A stretch of DNA of 64,000 nucleotides from Armatimonadota bacterium (GCA_039679675.1 JBDKUN010000065.1:32001-96000); one strand, 5' to 3'. Positions 1 through 55,912 are shown, counted from the first letter of the stretch. Program-made: numbers and translations. The notes: generated by a model not told the origin, from the sequence alone.

Positions 1-1145
1 TTATCAGCAACCCTGTACTTACTGGGTTCACTGCCGGAAAGATCATCTGGCTGCGAAACAACGAACCTGAAGCATATTCCCACGTCAAAAAGGTCCTGCT
101 GCCAAAGGATTACATACGCCTCATGCTCACAGGCGAGTATGCGACTGATGTCTCCGACGCATCCGGGACGGCCCTATTCAATGTAAGGGAACGAGCCTGG
201 TCCGACGAGATGCTTGACACTCTCGATATTCCAAGAGAGTGGATGCCCCGCGCTTATGAGTCACCGGAGATAACCGGACGAATAACCGCCGAAGCTGCTG
301 CTGTTTCTGGCCTCGAACCGGGCACGCCGGTCGTCGCAGGCGGCGGAGATAACGCCGCAAGCGCAGTTGGAAATGGGATAGTGGAACCGGGATTAGTCTT
401 CTCATCGATCGGAACATCCGGCGTCGTCTTTGCTTACGCCGATGAGCCTGCCGTCGACCCGAAACTGCGCGTCCATACATTCTGCCATGCAGTCCCGGGC
501 AAATGGCATGTGATGGGAGTAGTACTGTCTGCCGGAGGCAGCCTCAGATGGTATAAAGATGCTTTTTGCGAAGCCGAAAATGCAGTTGCCGGGCATACTA
601 ATCGTGATACTTATGATATACTAGCAGAGGAAGCAGCTGGCGTCCCTCCCGGATGTGAAGGGCTCATCTTTTTGCCGTATTTGACCGGAGAGAGGACCCC
701 TTATGCCGATCCTTATGCGCGCGGTGTCTTTTTCGGCATCACGCTCAGGCATAGCAAGCCGTATTTTGCACGAGCCGTGATGGAAGGTGTAAGCTATGCA
801 ATGAGGGACTCTTTCGAGATTATGAAAGAGATGGGGGTTCCGCTGGCCCAGGTCCGTGCTACCGGCGGCGGAGCTAAAAGCGCGCTCTGGAGGCAGATAG
901 AGGCCGATATTACCGGCAAGGAACATGTCACTGTCAATACCGGGGAAGGACCGGCGTTTGGAGCAGCGCTCCTCGCCGGAGTCGGAACAGGCGTTTATCC
1001 AAGTGTGACTCAGGCTTGCAAATCCGCCATTAGTGTGGAAAATTCTACTGAGCCAATTCAAAATAACATCCCGATATACGAGCGATACTACCGTGTTTAC
1101 CAGGATCTTTATAAATCGCTCAAGCCTGACTTCAGGCTGGTATAG
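1..1145 (+). CDS. xylB: Xylulokinase (FGGY carbohydrate kinase), 5' end outside window
   Basis: Motifs GGGDNAASAVG, SIGTSG, FLPYLTGERTPY, TGGGAKS; the frame is open from the window start. Confidence 0.9.
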   Translation, partial: ISNPVLTGFTAGKIIWLRNNEPEAYSHVKKVLLPKDYIRLMLTGEYATDVSDASGTALFNVRERAWSDEMLDTLDIPREWMPRAYESPEITGRITAEAAAVSGLEPGTPVVAGGGDNAASAVGNGIVEPGLVFSSIGTSGVVFAYADEPAVDPKLRVHTFCHAVPGKWHVMGVVLSAGGSLRWYKDAFCEAENAVAGHTNRDTYDILAEEAAGVPPGCEGLIFLPYLTGERTPYADPYARGVFFGITLRHSKPYFARAVMEGVSYAMRDSFEIMKEMGVPLAQVRATGGGAKSALWRQIEADITGKEHVTVNTGEGPAFGAALLAGVGTGVYPSVTQACKSAISVENSTEPIQNNIPIYERYYRVYQDLYKSLKPDFRLV

Positions 1146-49721: not shown

Positions 49722-50747
49722 ATGAGAGTTCTCAGACTGCACGCGCCGCTTGATATGAGGATGCACGACGAACCTGTTCCTGTACCAGGACCGGGTGAAG
49801 CACTGGTCCATGTCGGATCGGTGGGCGTCTGCGCGTCCGATGTCCATTGGTGGCGGCACGGCAGGATCGGCGGAAACGTGCTTACAGACCCGCTGGTTTT
49901 GGGACATGAGGCCGCCGGTACTGTTGAATCTGTCGGAGAAGGGGTTCCATACCTGAAACCGGGGCAGCGGGTCGCAATCGAACCCGCCAAACCCTGCGGC
50001 AGGTGTGAGTTCTGCATGTCGGGCAACTATAATGTCTGTCCATCCGTAAAATTCTTCGGCACGCCACCGACTGACGGTTGTTTTAGAGATTACGTCGTCT
50101 GGCCAGCGTCGCTGATGCTTCCCATCCCCGATTCCATCTCGCTGGATGAAGCCGCTATGCTCGAACCGCTTGCAGTCGGGATTTACGCAGCGGACCTCGC
50201 AATGATCCGCGCAGAAGAGAAGGTAGCAGTCCTCGGAGCGGGGGCAATCGGGCTTTCAGTGATGCAGTCGCTCAAAGTCTGCGGCGCGGGAGATGTATTG
50301 GTGTGCGATCCTATCTCCGCCCGGCGCGAAACGGCGCTGAAACTTGGAGCGGACGAAGTTTGTGACCCATCCGAGGTGCATGAAGCCGCAAAAGCTATGA
50401 CTTCGGGACGAGGTTTCGATCTGGTCTTCGAATGCGCGGGAGATATTAACGCAGTGAGGGAGACAGCAAGGCTCGCGCGGGTGCTTGGGCGGGTTGTGAT
50501 CGTCGGTATTCCAAAGGAAGATGAGTATCCTTTCGATGCCGGATCAGCCAGAAGAAAGCAGCTCAAAGCCACATTCGTCCGCAGAAGCAATCTGACGGGA
50601 GAACGAGCTGTGGAGCTTGTGCATCGAGGCAAAATCAATGCGGCAAGCCTTGCAACCCATACGTTCCCGCTTGAAGACACCGATAAAGCAATGAAACTTG
50701 CCGAATCGAAGACGGACGGCGTTATCCGTGCCGTCATTCGGCTATAA
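49722..50747 (+). CDS. Zinc-dependent polyol (sorbitol/xylitol-like) dehydrogenase
   Basis: GVCASD, GHE, CGRCEFC..GNYNVC, EPL, GAGAIG; GGAGG RBS. Confidence 0.88.
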   Translation: MRVLRLHAPLDMRMHDEPVPVPGPGEALVHVGSVGVCASDVHWWRHGRIGGNVLTDPLVLGHEAAGTVESVGEGVPYLKPGQRVAIEPAKPCGRCEFCMSGNYNVCPSVKFFGTPPTDGCFRDYVVWPASLMLPIPDSISLDEAAMLEPLAVGIYAADLAMIRAEEKVAVLGAGAIGLSVMQSLKVCGAGDVLVCDPISARRETALKLGADEVCDPSEVHEAAKAMTSGRGFDLVFECAGDINAVRETARLARVLGRVVIVGIPKEDEYPFDAGSARRKQLKATFVRRSNLTGERAVELVHRGKINAASLATHTFPLEDTDKAMKLAESKTDGVIRAVIRL

Positions 50748-50774
50748 ATAATCTTGATACTGTAACTGGAGGCT

Positions 50775-51188
50775 ATGTTGGCTCATAATACTGACAAAAA
50801 CTGCTGTGCGGCCTGTGCTGAAAATGAAGCGCCCCTTAGGATATGGTGGGTGATCCCCGGTATTATCGGTGGAGTTGCTGCGGCAGCCATCTTCGCATAC
50901 CTGCATGTCCGCTTCGGAGGAATGGCTCCGATCCAGGCGGGAAGCACTGCAGCGACAAGCACTGGAATCTTCGTGATATCGTATCTGCTGCTCAGGCGTA
51001 TTCGCCCGCAGGAGAACCCCAGTTCCATAAAGGGACTGCTGCAGAGCACAGCCGTCGCACTCCCTGTCTTCGTGATGGCGTTCATAGGGCTTGCATACGA
51101 GATCGGCGTACTGGCGGATTTCACTGCGATGTACATCCTCGGAAGCTGGCTCGGAACTTCCGAAGCTGCAGAAAAAGCGGAGTGTTGA
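50775..51188 (+). CDS. Small 4-TM membrane protein; 3' end duplicated at 54832-54973
   Basis: GGAGG RBS, hydrophobic, N-terminal CCAAC. Confidence 0.7.
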   Translation: MLAHNTDKNCCAACAENEAPLRIWWVIPGIIGGVAAAAIFAYLHVRFGGMAPIQAGSTAATSTGIFVISYLLLRRIRPQENPSSIKGLLQSTAVALPVFVMAFIGLAYEIGVLADFTAMYILGSWLGTSEAAEKAEC

Positions 51189-51220
51189 GGTAAGCTATAG
51201 GATTCAGAATTCAGGATTTC

Positions 51221-51266
51221 TGCTTCGGGACCACAGTTCGTCCCGAAGCACGATTCTCCACCAATC
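51221..51266 (+). repeat. REP-like palindrome family A, copy 3
   Basis: tgcttcgggac-cacagttc-gtcccgaagca-cgattctccaccaatc. Confidence 0.9.
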
Positions 51267-51281
51267 CCTACATCTACACAT

Positions 51282-52337
51282 CTAAAACCACAACAAGCGC
51301 CTGAATCCGTGCAGCAGGACTATTACCAGGAAAAAGACATTTCGAGCAAGGAGTCCCAAAGCCGACAACTTAGGTGCGGACTGCTTCTCATTATTCGATA
51401 ATGCCTTTACAAGCCTTGTGCCGAGGTTTTCCATCCACAATACGCTTCTCGGCCACTCCACAATCCCGCTGAGCCAGTCCACAGGGATTCCATCCTTGCC
51501 TACACCAGCTCCTATAATCCCGCCGACTATCGCTGCAGTTGTATCCGTATCCCCGCCGCAGTGTATTACATCCAACACTGCAGCTCGGTAATCGTTCAAA
51601 TTTCTAAACCAGGCATAAAGAGCTACCGGAACTGTAGAATAGACATAACCGCTTACGCCTCTTTCCAATCCCATTCCGGTAGCGAATTCCTCAGTGGTAG
51701 CCCCCAACTCCGAACTCTCGACAGCCGCCGTGACAAGATTTATGAACTCTTCCGATTCGTCTCCGAGAAGACCAACTAACATATGCAGATAGTCCCTCGG
51801 ATTGGCTTCACCCTGCGCGGATAAATATGCTGCCAATGCAACGGCAAATGCGCCGTATTCGGCTTTGGGATCAGTGTGAGTAATCCGTGTCGATGCACGA
51901 ACCAGGTCACGCATCTTCTTCAGGTCGTCTCCGTAGCAAACGCCGATGATTGCACTCCTCATCGCCGGGCCGTTTCCAGCAGAAAAGACTCCGCTCCGGC
52001 TTGGTGAAGTGCCAATCAGCAACCTAAGTGCGGACTTCACCGTAGCCATCCCAGCACCGGCAGGAAGCATAATGAGCCAACGCTTCAACCTACTGGCAAA
52101 GCATTTGGTAAAGGCATCACAGTCTCCAACAGATTCGATTATAGACTGGGCAACCATACAGGTGTGCTCTGTATCATCGGATATCATCCCACGACCGAAG
52201 AAAAACCTGTACCCGTCGAGTTTCGGAAACACCCGTTTCTGCCGCTTTCTGGAAAGTCCCTCCACCGGCAGTCCAATTGCATCTCCCACCGCCGTGCCGA
52301 GAATGCAGCCTATTACTGAACGCTCCATGAAAGCCAC
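51282..52337 (-). CDS. ADP-ribosylglycohydrolase (DraG/ARH family)
   Basis: GDAIG, SDDT, GNGPAMR, THTDP, GGDTDT. Confidence 0.92.
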   Translation of the reverse strand: MAFMERSVIGCILGTAVGDAIGLPVEGLSRKRQKRVFPKLDGYRFFFGRGMISDDTEHTCMVAQSIIESVGDCDAFTKCFASRLKRWLIMLPAGAGMATVKSALRLLIGTSPSRSGVFSAGNGPAMRSAIIGVCYGDDLKKMRDLVRASTRITHTDPKAEYGAFAVALAAYLSAQGEANPRDYLHMLVGLLGDESEEFINLVTAAVESSELGATTEEFATGMGLERGVSGYVYSTVPVALYAWFRNLNDYRAAVLDVIHCGGDTDTTAAIVGGIIGAGVGKDGIPVDWLSGIVEWPRSVLWMENLGTRLVKALSNNEKQSAPKLSALGLLARNVFFLVIVLLHGFRRLLWF

Positions 52338-52338
52338 C

Positions 52339-52806
52339 TTACCCCCTCCTGAACCTCACCAGTATCACTTTCTGAGGACTTTCTATCTCCTTAAAAGCAT
52401 CGAGCATGACTTTTTCAGCTCTAGATGCGCTGAACCCTCCCGACCCGGCTCCGATGATAGGAAATGCCAGTGATTTAATGCCGAGTTCCTCGACAATCTT
52501 CATAGCGTTTACCACAGAACCTCGAATCGACCCTTCAGATGCTCTCCAAAGCATGTTGATCCCGGCTACATGGATGATTGCCTTGTAAGGAAGCCTCCCG
52601 GCAGAGGTGGCAACCGCTCCGCCGAGTGGAATCGGCCCAACTTTGGCAAGTTCCTTGAACGGCTGGTAACCAGCACGCTTCTTTATTGCCCCTGATACCC
52701 CTTGAGGGAGCAGAAGCCACCAGGGAATGATGTTTCTGTTCCAGGCATTTACGATGGCTTCCACAGGCTGATCGAGCAGATCGCCTTCGACTATCTTTAC
52801 ATCCAT
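52339..52806 (-). CDS. Macro domain protein
   Basis: VEGDL, AIVNAWN, GVSGAI, IIHVAG, AFPIIGAGSGG. Confidence 0.92.
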   Translation of the reverse strand: MDVKIVEGDLLDQPVEAIVNAWNRNIIPWWLLLPQGVSGAIKKRAGYQPFKELAKVGPIPLGGAVATSAGRLPYKAIIHVAGINMLWRASEGSIRGSVVNAMKIVEELGIKSLAFPIIGAGSGGFSASRAEKVMLDAFKEIESPQKVILVRFRRG

Positions 52807-52826
52807 TTTTCCAAATTCCTTGCTTC

Positions 52827-54023
52827 CTACTCATGCAGATGAAGCTGTGCCGACTTCTGACCGTCCTCTATTCTGATCAGCCGGTCCGGGTTTTGATACT
52901 GGGCAACCAGGTAGCGGGTCAGATCGATGTTCATCCCTTTCATCGATTGCAGAAACTCTATCTGCTCCCTGTCCATCGCTTTCTGGTGCTCTTCCTCTAT
53001 CTCGTTCACCATCCGTTTGGCAGAAGCATCCCTTTCCTGCTCGGCTTCAAGCTGACGCAGGGTCTCTTCGTAAGAAATTGACTGAAGTTGTATCTTATGC
53101 CGCTCTTCGGACTCCTCCATCTCCCGGCGCTGTTTTGCGCGCTCGGCTTCGCGTTCCAGCCGCAAGTCCGCAAGCTCCTGCGCCTGGTTTTCAGTCTCGG
53201 ATTCCAGTTTGAGCTTGGTCCTTGCCTCAATAGCCTGGTCGTGCATATTCTGAAGCGTCGCGCTCGCATGGTAGCCCCTGTACACGACCTTGTTGATCTT
53301 GTAGCCTATCCGCTCGCCCCGCTGGATTAACTGAGGATACGTTTCCAGGTCATTCAGCTTATTGGTCTGCTCTTTGAACCGCTCGAATGGGAGCGCTACA
53401 ACAAAGTCTATCACATCCGCAGTCACCGCATTGATGAAATCCGCGACTGGGTCGTGTGTCTGGTCCAGCATTTTTTCGATGTCTGTAAGCTCGAAGAAGA
53501 TCATCAGCTTGATGACCAGAAGCGCGTCATCAGCAGTCCGAACATCGCACACGTCAAAATACATCTGGTCGGGAATAATTCTGAGCTTGGCAAATCTGAG
53601 CGCACCGTAAACCTTCTTATTTGGGTCCTTCGGGTCTGACCCATGCCAGCAAAAATTGTGCAGCCACTCATTTGCCGCCGGAACATACATATCCGGCCCA
53701 CGGACAACCCGCCGGTCGACATGATCATCATCCTGCCGGTAGACGACGACGGCCTCGTTCGCATCTATGGCAAACGCCTTCTGCACAGAAATACTCTCAT
53801 GCAGAACAGGATTAAACCAGACCGACACCGGGCCGCGCAGATGCTCGCTTCGCCCGTTCTTATACACCACAGCCAAATATTCATCAGTCCCGGCAGCATA
53901 AAGCATCATTTTTTCGAGCTTGCGGCCGATAGTATAAACTCTTCTGGGACCGTCGATCATCTCGACTCTGCCCCGTTTGTCCCACACTGCTACACGTTCA
54001 CCCTGCCGAATTGTTGCGAACAC
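52827..54023 (-). CDS. Major-vault-protein-like / SPFH protein with coiled-coil tail
   Basis: AAAGGAGG RBS before GTG 54023; three beta repeats with GP motifs, VRTADDA shoulder-like domain, long charged helix. Confidence 0.7.
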   Translation of the reverse strand: MFATIRQGERVAVWDKRGRVEMIDGPRRVYTIGRKLEKMMLYAAGTDEYLAVVYKNGRSEHLRGPVSVWFNPVLHESISVQKAFAIDANEAVVVYRQDDDHVDRRVVRGPDMYVPAANEWLHNFCWHGSDPKDPNKKVYGALRFAKLRIIPDQMYFDVCDVRTADDALLVIKLMIFFELTDIEKMLDQTHDPVADFINAVTADVIDFVVALPFERFKEQTNKLNDLETYPQLIQRGERIGYKINKVVYRGYHASATLQNMHDQAIEARTKLKLESETENQAQELADLRLEREAERAKQRREMEESEERHKIQLQSISYEETLRQLEAEQERDASAKRMVNEIEEEHQKAMDREQIEFLQSMKGMNIDLTRYLVAQYQNPDRLIRIEDGQKSAQLHLHE

Positions 54024-54036
54024 TTTAAACCTCCTT

Positions 54037-54726
54037 TTATATCTCGAAATTGAATCCCTGCTCTGCAAGCTTCCGATATTTCTCCTCATCGAAGCTGTAG
54101 AGCCGTGCTGCTCGGTGCGCCACATCCTGCTGGACCTCGTCAAGCTCTACCAAAAGGTCCATGCCGAGTATCTTCTTTCGGAAATTCCGCTTGTCGAGCG
54201 TTGTTTCGAGGATAATTTCATACAGATGCTGAAGCTGAGAAAGAGTAAACCTCTCAGGAAGCAACTCGAAACCAATTGGCTGATACCTGACCTTTCCTTT
54301 CAGCCGTTCATGTGCCGTTTCGATTATCAGATTGTGGTCGAATACAAGCTGAGGCAGATCATCAACCGGAAACCAGAGCGCATTTCTGGCATCCGTCGCC
54401 GCTTGGATGTGGTGGTCATAGAGATTCACAAGCGCGTAGTAAGCAACACTCACTACCCTCTCCCTGGGGTCGCGGTCGACAGCGCCGAATGTATACAACT
54501 GCTCAAGATACACATCACCCACGCCGGTTTCTTCATGAAGTTCGCGGAGCGCTGCATCTTCGAGAGTTTCGTCGATATGAACAAACCCTCCCGGTAGCGC
54601 CCATTTTCCTGCAAACGGTTCCAGGTCCCTCTCGATAAGGAGGATTTTCAAATTCTCCTCATCAACCCCGAATACGACACAATCTACCGTCAGTGCCGGT
54701 CTCGGATACTCGTATGTATACGCCAT
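54037..54726 (-). CDS. nrtR: NrtR family regulator (Nudix plus winged HTH)
   Basis: [54 protein letters not shown]. Confidence 0.92.
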
Positions 54727-54744
54727 TGTGCATTCACCCCCTAC

Positions 54745-54793
54745 TTAGTGTATTCCCTACACTTATAATAGTGTAACATTCACACTATGTCAA
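54745..54793 (-). promoter_or_regulatory. Promoter with two tandem NrtR-type boxes
   Basis: TTGACA-17-TATTAT; palindromes ttagtgtattccctacactta (54745-54765) and atagtgtaacattcacactat (54768-54788). Confidence 0.85.
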
Positions 54794-55003
54794 GGAATAT
54801 TTTGATTTAATTGAAATAAATATTCAAGGTGCAGCCGTCGCTCTACCCGTTTTCGTGATGGCGTTCATAGGGCTTGCATACGAGATCGGCGTACTGGCGG
54901 ATTTCACTGCGATGTACATCCTCGGAAGCTGGCTCGGAACTTCCGAAGCTGCAGAAAAAGCGGAGTGTTGAGGATTTCAAATGTAAAAATCTATAAGCAT
55001 GAT

Positions 55004-55912
55004 TTAGAATCTAGATCCGCGCCTGATTCTTGACTTGAATATCAATGGCATTGCAAACACACCTGCAGCACATAACAAATGAAAGAATATTGCAGGCATC
55101 AGGTATGTTTTTGGATCAGGAAAAAGAAGGGAATAGGGCAAGTAGATAGCTATAAATATTCCGGGTCCAATAAAAAACCCGCCGACTAGCACTGCAATAA
55201 GCCCAAGCCATGCTTTAGATGATTTCCATTGATTGCTCACTGCCATACCGATAATAACTCCTACAAGCGAGCCTATAATAAACCCCAAAAACTCAAGAAT
55301 CGCCGGAATCCAAAAAGCTATCGGTCCCATACAAGTATTTTTATCTATCGGTTGTGCTGCCATAACAATAAACAGCAGAGCACCCGGAAAAGCACCGATC
55401 ACTGCGCCTGAAGCTATGTAGAACCAGGGCTTGAGCCTGTTCAACGCTTCAATCTGCTCCTGTTCTTCAGAAGGTGCTGCCTGCTCTTTTGTTTCGGCTG
55501 CTTGTTCTCCTGCTCCAATTGCAGCAGCTATCTGTGCAACTGAAACTTGTGATGGGAGCATCAATATAGTTATTAACAGCAGGATTATGCTGATTGCTGA
55601 TCTAAGTGATACCGAAAGCAGGATTAGGACAAGGAAGATCATCCACATCAGTTGCCATACCCTTGCCGCGGTCCCACCTTTTGTTATCATCATCCACCAG
55701 AAAAGCCCGATGAACAGGAATATCATACTTGCCGGACTAGCGTGGATATCAATGGGGATTTTTGCACCGGATAAAAGCAAATACAAATAAAACGAGCTTA
55801 TCAGCAGAAGCGCAATCAGGCCGATTACAGCTTTCAACCGCCATGCTCTGTCAGCTTGCCGCCATACTGTAAGCCTTATATCAGGATTATCATCCTGCCG
55901 CATCAGACCCAC
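55004..55912 (-). CDS. Multi-TM membrane protein of unknown function
   Basis: About 8 hydrophobic segments with an acidic linker; GGAGG RBS. Confidence 0.65.
   Translation of the reverse strand: MGLMRQDDNPDIRLTVWRQADRAWRLKAVIGLIALLLISSFYLYLLLSGAKIPIDIHASPASMIFLFIGLFWWMMITKGGTAARVWQLMWMIFLVLILLSVSLRSAISIILLLITILMLPSQVSVAQIAAAIGAGEQAAETKEQAAPSEEQEQIEALNRLKPWFYIASGAVIGAFPGALLFIVMAAQPIDKNTCMGPIAFWIPAILEFLGFIIGSLVGVIIGMAVSNQWKSSKAWLGLIAVLVGGFFIGPGIFIAIYLPYSLLFPDPKTYLMPAIFFHLLCAAGVFAMPLIFKSRIRRGSRF

Follow-up and report, generated by a model that had tools for sequence, protein, structure and literature searches.

Positions 54793-51282 of a 64,000-nucleotide stretch of DNA from an Armatimonadota bacterium (GCA_039679675.1 JBDKUN010000065.1:32001-96000), referred to as the window throughout, hold a minus-strand operon of nrtR, a gene for a 398-residue protein, a Macro domain gene and an ADP-ribosylglycohydrolase (ARH) gene. 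Structural and family analysis of the 398-residue protein was done along with comparison of its gene neighbourhoods, and by architecture and predicted fold it is a miniature major vault protein (MVP), soluble and with three repeats, hereafter mini-MVP. All four genes lie where a preliminary description of this DNA had put them, and the motifs it listed (GRVEMIDGP, GRSEHLRGP, RRVVRGPDMYVP..NE, DVRTADDA, DPVADF and FERF) were all found in the translation. The features of the operon are as follows.

54793-51282, minus strand: nrtR-mini-MVP-Macro-ARH operon, four tightly packed genes behind one promoter
54765..54793, minus strand: sigma-70-type promoter, TTGACA (54793-54788), 17-nt spacer, TATTAT (54770-54765)
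54769..54787: NrtR box 1, TAGTGTGAATGTTACACTA, palindrome TAGTGT-N7-ACACTA filling the spacer between -35 and -10
54746..54764: NrtR box 2, AAGTGTAGGGAATACACTA, directly past the -10, 23 bp from box 1 centre to centre
54037..54726, minus strand: nrtR, 229 aa, Pfam NrtR_WHD (8e-29) and NUDIX (2.4e-21)
52827..54023, minus strand: mini-MVP gene (P0001), 398 aa, GTG start behind AAGGAGG
52339..52806, minus strand: Macro domain protein gene, 155 aa, Pfam Macro (2.4e-23)
51282..52337, minus strand: ADP-ribosylglycohydrolase (DraG/ARH family) gene, 351 aa, Pfam ADP_ribosyl_GH (4e-64)
51285..51359, minus strand: C-terminal hydrophobic tail of the ARH (..LLARNVFFLVIVLLHGFRRLLWF), 17-residue Kyte-Doolittle mean 2.39

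The longest open reading frame at the mini-MVP gene runs from 54143 to 52827, and the likely start within it is the GTG at 54023, which lies 7 nt past AAGGAGG and 14 nt past the nrtR stop and gives 398 residues. The regulator upstream combines a Nudix effector domain with the NrtR winged-helix DNA-binding domain in Pfam and scores 177 bits on the NCBIfam TransRepNtr/NtrR model, under the equivalog cut-off of 400. By eye its Nudix box (residues 46-68, window 54523-54591) seems intact against the consensus GX5EX7REUXEEXGU, and the NrtR of the operon may retain ADP-ribose pyrophosphatase activity.

The promoter TTGACA-17-TATTAT matches at 11 of 12 positions and is the sole promoter-like site within 50700-55100. 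It carries the two NrtR-type boxes that had been reported on it, both of them 19-bp palindromes of the form TAGTGT-N7-ACACTA and both containing the GT-N7-AC core that most NrtR operators have (PMC2330246). These two are the only window matches to the box motif at two mismatches or fewer, with about one expected by chance, and the only zero-mismatch sites for WAGTGT-N7-ACACTW in the whole 3.14-Mb genome. One-mismatch matches in the same genome were not enriched (13 against 19 in the control) and lie mostly in a contig-end repeat; only the two exact sites are meaningful. The 19-mer AAGTGTCATAAATCCACTA occurs in six copies in this genome (C9:6-24, C17:104-122, C24:24344-24362, C44:95-113, C31:67732-67750 and C62:56041-56059), four of them no more than about 120 bp from where a contig starts or ends. 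It probably marks the terminus of a repeated insertion element at which the assembly broke, and is not an NrtR site. ADP-ribose suppresses the binding of NrtR to DNA, as PMC2330246 reports for two members of the family, and by analogy with them this operon is apparently under ADP-ribose control.

Predicted structure and family of the mini-MVP

The whole chain was modelled with AlphaFold2 on 40 homologues (pLDDT 82.8) and the N-terminal domain was folded alone on 35 sequences (pLDDT 92.9). The layout of the model by DSSP is beta strands to residue 135, an alpha/beta domain at 137-253, a single helix at 255-364 and a low-confidence tail, which correspond to the following parts of the gene.

53619..54023, minus strand: three predicted vault-type beta repeats (about 1-40, 41-85 and 86-135), residues 1-135
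53265..53615, minus strand: predicted SPFH/shoulder domain, residues 137-253; the highly conserved loop W126-Q153 lies just ahead, mostly in the repeat part
52932..53261, minus strand: predicted long charged helix of about 110 residues, counterpart of the MVP cap helix, residues 255-364
52830..52931, minus strand: conserved C-terminal tail (DLTRYLVAQYQNPDRLIRI...HLHE), residues 365-398, pLDDT below 50

In a Foldseek search of the PDB with the whole chain, the 12 best matches were all MVP (E 4.0e-13 to 4.4e-9), the first other match being flotillin (2.1e-7), with stomatin, erlin and HflK/C after it. VIA-align placed model residues 1..369 on MVP 322..762, a stretch comprising R7-R9, the shoulder and the cap helix (Z 13.2, root-mean-square deviation (rmsd) 10.3 A, 349 aligned), the helix 255-364 being aligned with the cap helix up to MVP residue 762. 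In the same comparison the full-length chains of prohibitin, HflK/C, erlin and flotillin align from about residue 82 onward only, and residues 1-81 are matched by MVP alone. Isolated SPFH domains score equally high, model residues 147..256 matching that of stomatin at Z 13.3 over 109 positions (rmsd 1.8 A), and the central region is accordingly an SPFH domain, like the MVP shoulder.

The N-terminal part is decisive, and for the N-terminal model alone the 15 best Foldseek matches were all MVP (TMq 0.57-0.68), although just one of them had an E-value of 0.001 or better, and the next match had a probability of 0.14. In an exhaustive comparison without Foldseek, covering 48,161 chains, only two reached Z 5 or more, both of them MVP R1-R3, at Z 8.6 over 135 of the 136 residues (rmsd 3.3 A) and at Z 6.5 over 134 (rmsd 2.9 A). 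The three beta repeats proposed in the preliminary description are thus clear in the predicted structure, and its Foldseek check against MVP put MVP on top and as the sole match to the N-terminal repeats, not the ordinary flotillin or HflK proteins. The proposed lack of a transmembrane segment agrees with a hydropathy scan of the mini-MVP, in which no membrane segment was found; the top 19-residue Kyte-Doolittle mean (1.68, at residue 193) sits in a confidently modelled SPFH helix, and the N-terminus is made of beta repeats without a hydrophobic segment. The tail 365-398 has a mean entropy of 0.91 bits in alignment A1, as low as the SPFH region. A prediction of three copies of residues 1-300 with two ADP-ribose gave a median score of 0.41 against a mark of 0.42, with 0.00 in the three controls, and neither supports nor opposes assembly.

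The pooled profile was made from the three repeats of the family itself and by construction finds three units in the window protein; in proteins outside its build it finds 5 units (490 aa), 7 units (610-629 aa) and about 9-10 units (690-809 aa). From these steps of 3, 5, 7 and about 9-10 it can be deduced that the repeats are modular, as in MVP. Pairwise hhalign of the repeats gave E 0.024 for R1 against R2 with the remaining pairs not significant, and self-comparison of alignment A1 gave no off-diagonal match.

The family is large, a word-indexed search with 5474 candidates having yielded 1700 proteins at E 0.001 or better, and an exhaustive search 1276 representatives (50% identity clusters), 289 of them at E 1e-30 or better. 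Sequence identity to MVP is 13-18%. Among 57 diverse members, Pfam Band_7 was matched in 18, Vault_3 in six and MVP_shoulder in two (at E 0.01 or better for MVP_shoulder); the Vault_3 cut-off was passed by the homologues P0040, P0133 and P0127, and one source labels a homologue "Band 7 domain-containing protein". No match for mini-MVP was found in NCBIfam or PADLOC. Several of the nearest ESM Atlas clusters of the window protein have MVP_shoulder and Vault_3. The nearest cluster (404 aa, score 0.99, TM 0.75, 463 members) is labelled mostly Eukaryota, with Mollusca the commonest label, and further short Band_7 plus Vault_3 clusters are labelled Rotifera, Haptophyta and diatoms; such Eukaryota-labelled clusters may represent genuine mini-MVPs of eukaryotes, or else eukaryote assemblies that contain bacterial DNA.

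True MVPs, as defined by Pfam MVP_shoulder, were found in 31 of 301 sampled Myxococcota genomes with open frames mostly of 700-1000 aa, and the mini-MVP family is separate from them because true MVPs pass MVP_shoulder and mini-MVPs do not. Two Myxococcota genomes, G001 (L079/L087) and G002 (L063/L088), encode a canonical MVP as well as a mini-MVP relative, the canonical proteins scoring 97.8 and 70.2 bits on MVP_shoulder in open frames of 859 and 1024 aa respectively. Canonical MVP (PF11978) was not found in the window's genome or in three genomes with the NrtR-linked gene, nor was it in 14 control genomes, so this negative says little.

Gene neighbourhoods, the two clades and the inserted cassette

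The neighbourhoods were compared in the best 80 of 211 stretches encoding a relative, taken from species-representative genomes, and a quick maximum-likelihood tree was made of 80 rows, namely 79 of the 80 loci (L025 dropped) and the window protein. The tree splits with 100% SH-aLRT into clades of 57 and 23 rows, the larger being made up of 56 locus rows and the window, whose place inside it this quick tree leaves unsettled. It can be seen that nrtR stands on the same strand as the mini-MVP gene at 49 of the 80 loci and that all 49 belong to the window's clade, several clade loci without nrtR ending short upstream. The ADP-ribose linkage first suggested from the window alone accordingly recurs within its clade. 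None of the outcomes that the preliminary description named as refuting its idea was observed.

The neighbours counted across the 80 loci are the following.

PncA: 45
Nudix proteins other than NrtR: 39
ARH: 36
NadE: 31
Tpt1/KptA: 29
PncB: 26
microbial PARG: 15
Macro: 10
NADAR: 8

In all cases but one these neighbouring frames are on the same strand as the mini-MVP gene. Among the 49 nrtR loci, at least one eraser gene is present in 37 and at least one salvage gene in 43, leaving 12 with no eraser gene, and at the PVC loci the neighbours are chiefly the ordinary NAD salvage genes PncA, PncB and NadE. An ARH of the type in the operon occurs in 28 of the 57 clade rows, within the DNA fetched. Its tail type, RN followed by a hydrophobic stretch and HG.RR, was read by eye in 28 of 28 ARH orthologues (E < 1e-60) of the related loci and has a Kyte-Doolittle mean above 1.8 in 16 of them; this hydrophobic tail could act as tail anchor or docking peptide. 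ARH tails of the NrtR-operon type often finish in ..LLPPY.

The operator motif is conserved as well, with 109 sites of the box motif spread over 54 of the 80 loci, whereas reversed-sequence controls gave 31 sites at 19 loci. The boxes of related loci are mostly tandem pairs 22-23 bp apart that lie 20-60 bp ahead of nrtR, and at L005 and L045 a perfect box stands 44-52 bp ahead of the mini-MVP gene itself.

Proteins of the sister clade (23 of the 80 loci; Gemmataceae, Myxococcota and others) have N-terminal extensions, with an MshEN domain in four of seven tested. The MshEN domain is a receptor of cyclic di-GMP, and these fusions (L054, L058, L060 and L077, Pfam E 3.6e-13 to 1.4e-17; Gemmataceae and others) would be a second tie between the mini-MVP fold and nucleotide signals.

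The operon of the window lies between two direct repeats.

51049..51190, no strand: left 142-nt direct repeat, being the genuine 3' end of a membrane-protein gene at 50775..51188
54832..54973, no strand: right copy of the 142-nt direct repeat, duplicating the 3' end of that gene, right edge of the cassette

The two copies are 97% identical and 3783 nt apart. A genome of the same genus (G604) has a single copy of the repeat, and there the flanks are 90-94% identical, 165 bp stand in place of the window's 51182-55030 and the operon is absent. The four genes arrived together as a horizontally gained cassette of 3.78 kb (3783 bp), and the movement of regulator, mini-MVP, Macro and ARH as one unit is an argument for their working together. 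The insertion duplicated the last ~140 nt of the small membrane-protein gene, which left a pseudo 3' end upstream of the nrtR promoter. The cassette contains no integrase or defence gene.

The best named matches of a neighbouring housekeeping gene belong to Armatimonadota (95% and 70% identity). The distribution of the mini-MVP gene is patchy. Of 300 further genomes sampled within the window's phylum (301 with the window's own), none has it at E 1e-20 or better; in Planctomycetota it was found in 11 of 301 genomes, and the family spans at least seven phyla. No relatives were found in 50,697 phage records, in 72,556 plasmids (PLSDB) or in IMG/VR. Among cultured organisms, Adhaeretor mobilis, Poriferisphaera sp., Haloferula rosea and Algisphaera agarilytica have a mini-MVP.

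A possible nucleotide-binding shell and its rivals

Conservation in the family peaks in the loop 126-155 and in the SPFH residues 156-210. The loop W126-Q153 is conserved, basic and proline-rich, and in a weak profile alignment it falls in the same place as the keyhole loop of MVP. In human MVP, NAD+ and ADP are bound at tens-of-micromolar affinity in an SPFH pocket that lies between neighbouring shoulders, behind the keyhole loop (PMC12280208), and native human vaults are reported to contain ADP-ribose in the shoulder pocket, with TEP1 as an NADase making ADP-ribose from NAD+ inside the vault (10.64898/2026.05.01.722283). In this 2025-2026 work both vault enzymes, PARP4 and TEP1, consume NAD+ (PMC12280208; 10.64898/2026.05.01.722283). 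The parallel earlier drawn with the binding of PARP4 by eukaryotic vaults is thereby strengthened, human MVP itself binding NAD+, ADP and ADP-ribose.

Eukaryotic MVP (rat, human and rabbit; PDB 4v60, 9bw5, 9mxj, 9z4w and 9r86) has the same order of parts as the mini-MVP, namely repeats, shoulder, cap helix and tail; both are without a membrane anchor, and eukaryotic MVP is at once the best whole-chain structural match and the sole match for the mini-MVP repeats. It too is tied to NAD+ and ADP-ribose, housing PARP4 and the NADase TEP1 according to the same two reports. The mini-MVP differs in its size and number of repeats (398 aa and three, against about 860-890 aa and nine, R1-R9) and in its cap helix (about 110 residues against about 155). 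MVP vaults are two-fold barrel particles of 39-mer half shells. Its system has no counterpart of PARP4, TEP1 or vault RNA; an Rfam scan of 50700-55300 at E 0.1 or better gave no match, and hence no candidate vault-RNA-like gene there.

Vault repeats and a shoulder are likewise shared with the full-length bacterial MVPs of Myxococcales, Cytophagales and Oscillatoriales (PMC3762200, 10.1101/872010), and phage homologues of MVP have been described (10.1101/2023.11.10.566534). Unlike for the mini-MVP, no NrtR or ADP-ribose context is described for these full-length proteins in the accessible parts of the literature examined. In the SPFH cage proteins (HflK/C, flotillin, stomatin, prohibitin, erlin and QmcA) too, an SPFH domain leads into a long helix, which builds ring or dome oligomers, and the structural match from residue 82 onward is strong; these proteins are anchored in the membrane, however, and the two N-terminal repeats are missing from them, whereas the mini-MVP is predicted to be soluble. 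With the NrtR regulons of Rodionov et al. 2008 (PMC2330246) the operon shares the Nudix-winged-helix repressor, the GT-N7-AC palindromic operator, autoregulation and the control of pncA, pncB, nadE and ADP-ribose-linked genes. The window and the PVC-type loci represent such a regulon extended by a vault-fold protein and ADP-ribose erasers; PMC2330246 itself has no mention of Planctomycetes or band 7 proteins.

Taken together, we consider it probable (about 60%) that the mini-MVP is a soluble member of the NrtR regulon that assembles as a ring or dome and binds ADP-ribose-type nucleotides under NAD+ or ADP-ribosylation stress. Cleavage of NAD+ would raise free ADP-ribose, NrtR would leave its operators and the operon would be derepressed; as a member of this regulon, the mini-MVP should be made along with Macro and ARH when free ADP-ribose rises. 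Its chains would then assemble side by side into a soluble ring, dome or small shell, possibly with two half-shells joined via the N-terminal repeats, by analogy with the SPFH and MVP proteins that build rings, domes or barrels with such helices (PMC3762200). The conserved loop and shoulder might bind ADP-ribose-type nucleotides or position the hydrolases, and the outcome would be the buffering of nucleotides or the organising of ADP-ribose-removing enzymes during such stress.

Several results weigh against this proposal. At the level of sequence, the window protein has no Pfam match above cut-off, its Vault_3 score being 14 bits against a cut-off of 28.8 (E 0.058) and MVP_shoulder and Band_7 being without a match. 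The profile of the 57 members reaches MVP chains in the PDB weakly (E 0.32-2.3, positions 133-271 on MVP 463-599), and phmmer with the protein, and a profile of 40 close homologues, returned coiled-coil noise and no MVP from the PDB. The hhalign comparison with myxobacterial true MVPs (20 Myxococcota frames from 20 of 21 loci, L100 dropped) was collinear, in favour of the vault reading, but its probabilities of 66% (alignment A1, E 5.6e-5) and 52% (A2) amount to a weak sequence link. Of the human pocket residues at most three of 12 aligned are kept in a low-significance alignment, the matches being K506 with K132, D521 with D152, and P508 with a proline in the family consensus (Y139 in the window); there is no identity at R504, R507, H509, R511, L517, F522, P565 and K573, and W545 lies opposite a gap, so any nucleotide site would not be identical residue for residue. 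With three repeats and not nine, a vault-sized barrel is excluded. As for genomic context, the comparison covers 80 of the 211 matching genomes, and the sister clade has no NAD or ADP-ribose neighbours, none of its neighbours being common to more than four of its 23 loci, which makes the ADP-ribose link a property of one clade and not of the fold.

The divergence of the pocket residues would suit an unlikely alternative, in which the mini-MVP is a vault-fold scaffold of the NrtR regulon with no nucleotide binding of its own that cages or docks hydrolases or ADP-ribosylated substrates. It may be pictured as a dome enclosing an ARH whose hydrophobic tail keeps it at the membrane, much as FtsH is caged by HflK/C domes, or with the ARH tail as a cargo-loading peptide in the manner of encapsulins. 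The conserved RN...HG.RR tail on the ARH of the operon and on all 28 orthologues fits it, as does a transferred cassette that holds exactly mini-MVP, Macro and ARH plus the regulator, and partner-enclosing SPFH domes are established (titles of PDB entries for HflK/C-FtsH). It is opposed by the lack of a membrane anchor in the mini-MVP and by the ARH type being found in just 28 of 57 clade rows within the DNA fetched, with 12 of 49 nrtR loci having no eraser gene. The same cassette could also be read as a mobile conflict module against NAD+-depleting or ADP-ribosylating attack from phages, toxins or competitors, with the mini-MVP as sensor, decoy or sequestering shell and not as a housekeeping protein. 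Horizontal gain between 142-nt direct repeats, absence from the same-genus genome and patchy spread (the window's genome only among 301 of its phylum, 11 of 301 Planctomycetota, at least seven phyla) are in line with this, and so are the reversal of ADP-ribosylation by Macro, ARH, PARG and NADAR and the response of NrtR to an NADase product. Yet the mini-MVP is without a PADLOC match, no relative turned up in the phage, plasmid and IMG/VR collections searched, the cassette is without an integrase or defence gene and the PVC neighbours are mostly ordinary NAD salvage genes; we regard a conflict role as quite improbable.

Least credible, and to our mind very improbable, is an ordinary membrane scaffold of the flotillin, HflK or stomatin type, whose likeness to vaults would come from the shared SPFH-plus-helix arrangement and whose ADP-ribose neighbours would be incidental. 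Its merits are that VIA-align rates crystal structures of SPFH domains level with MVP (stomatin, Z 13.3), that Band_7 is the commonest Pfam match among the relatives (18 of 57) and that one source names a homologue for its Band 7 domain. Nonetheless, the protein is without a membrane segment, MVP is the sole match both for residues 1-81 and for the N-terminal domain searched alone, the regulatory context recurs across the clade (49 of 57 rows), and boxes stand directly ahead of the gene at two loci.

A broader and more tentative proposal, which we hold to be possible though doubtful, builds on the nucleotide-binding shell and is that vault-type shells are an ancient NAD+/ADP-ribose device, the mini-vault being induced by ADP-ribose via NrtR, binding ADP-ribose or NAD+ in its shoulder and housing ARH and Macro. 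The function of vaults has been a question ever since their discovery. Were the proposal true, the mini-vault would be the prokaryotic counterpart of the vault with PARP4, TEP1 and an ADP-ribose-binding shoulder, and the core function of vaults would be the control of ADP-ribose chemistry. In bacteria the family independently ties the vault fold to ADP-ribose at the level of regulation, and with relatives of 3, 5, 7 and 9-10 repeats it closes a structural gap from SPFH rings to vaults of nine repeats.

Full-length bacterial and phage MVPs are already known, and a three-repeat MVP-like family under NrtR control is absent from the literature searched, subscription journals and supplements lying outside that search. 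Within the same scope, no literature tying NrtR to SPFH, band 7 or vault proteins was found, and nothing relevant on MVP with bacterial ADP-ribose hydrolases (ARH, macrodomain). Since the protein is small (398 aa), predicted to be soluble and present in cultured strains, its assembly, ligand binding and physiology are directly testable. The cassette could thus make the link of vaults with NAD and ADP-ribose testable in bacteria, and the mini-MVP could serve as a compact self-assembling protein shell.

Read sets and a dispersed hairpin beside the operon

No RNA read sets carrying the operon are listed, and the two DNA sets that are listed are possibly the source of the assembly. The stretch from the left direct repeat to the ARH stop contains one further feature.

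51221..51268, no strand: dispersed hairpin repeat of about 48 bp (core CTTCGGGAC...GTCCCGAAG)

This hairpin occurs in many copies at 88-96% identity both in the window's genome (G000) and in the same-genus genome; it resembles repetitive extragenic palindromic (REP) sequences or miniature inverted-repeat transposable elements (MITEs), and it may act as a terminator.

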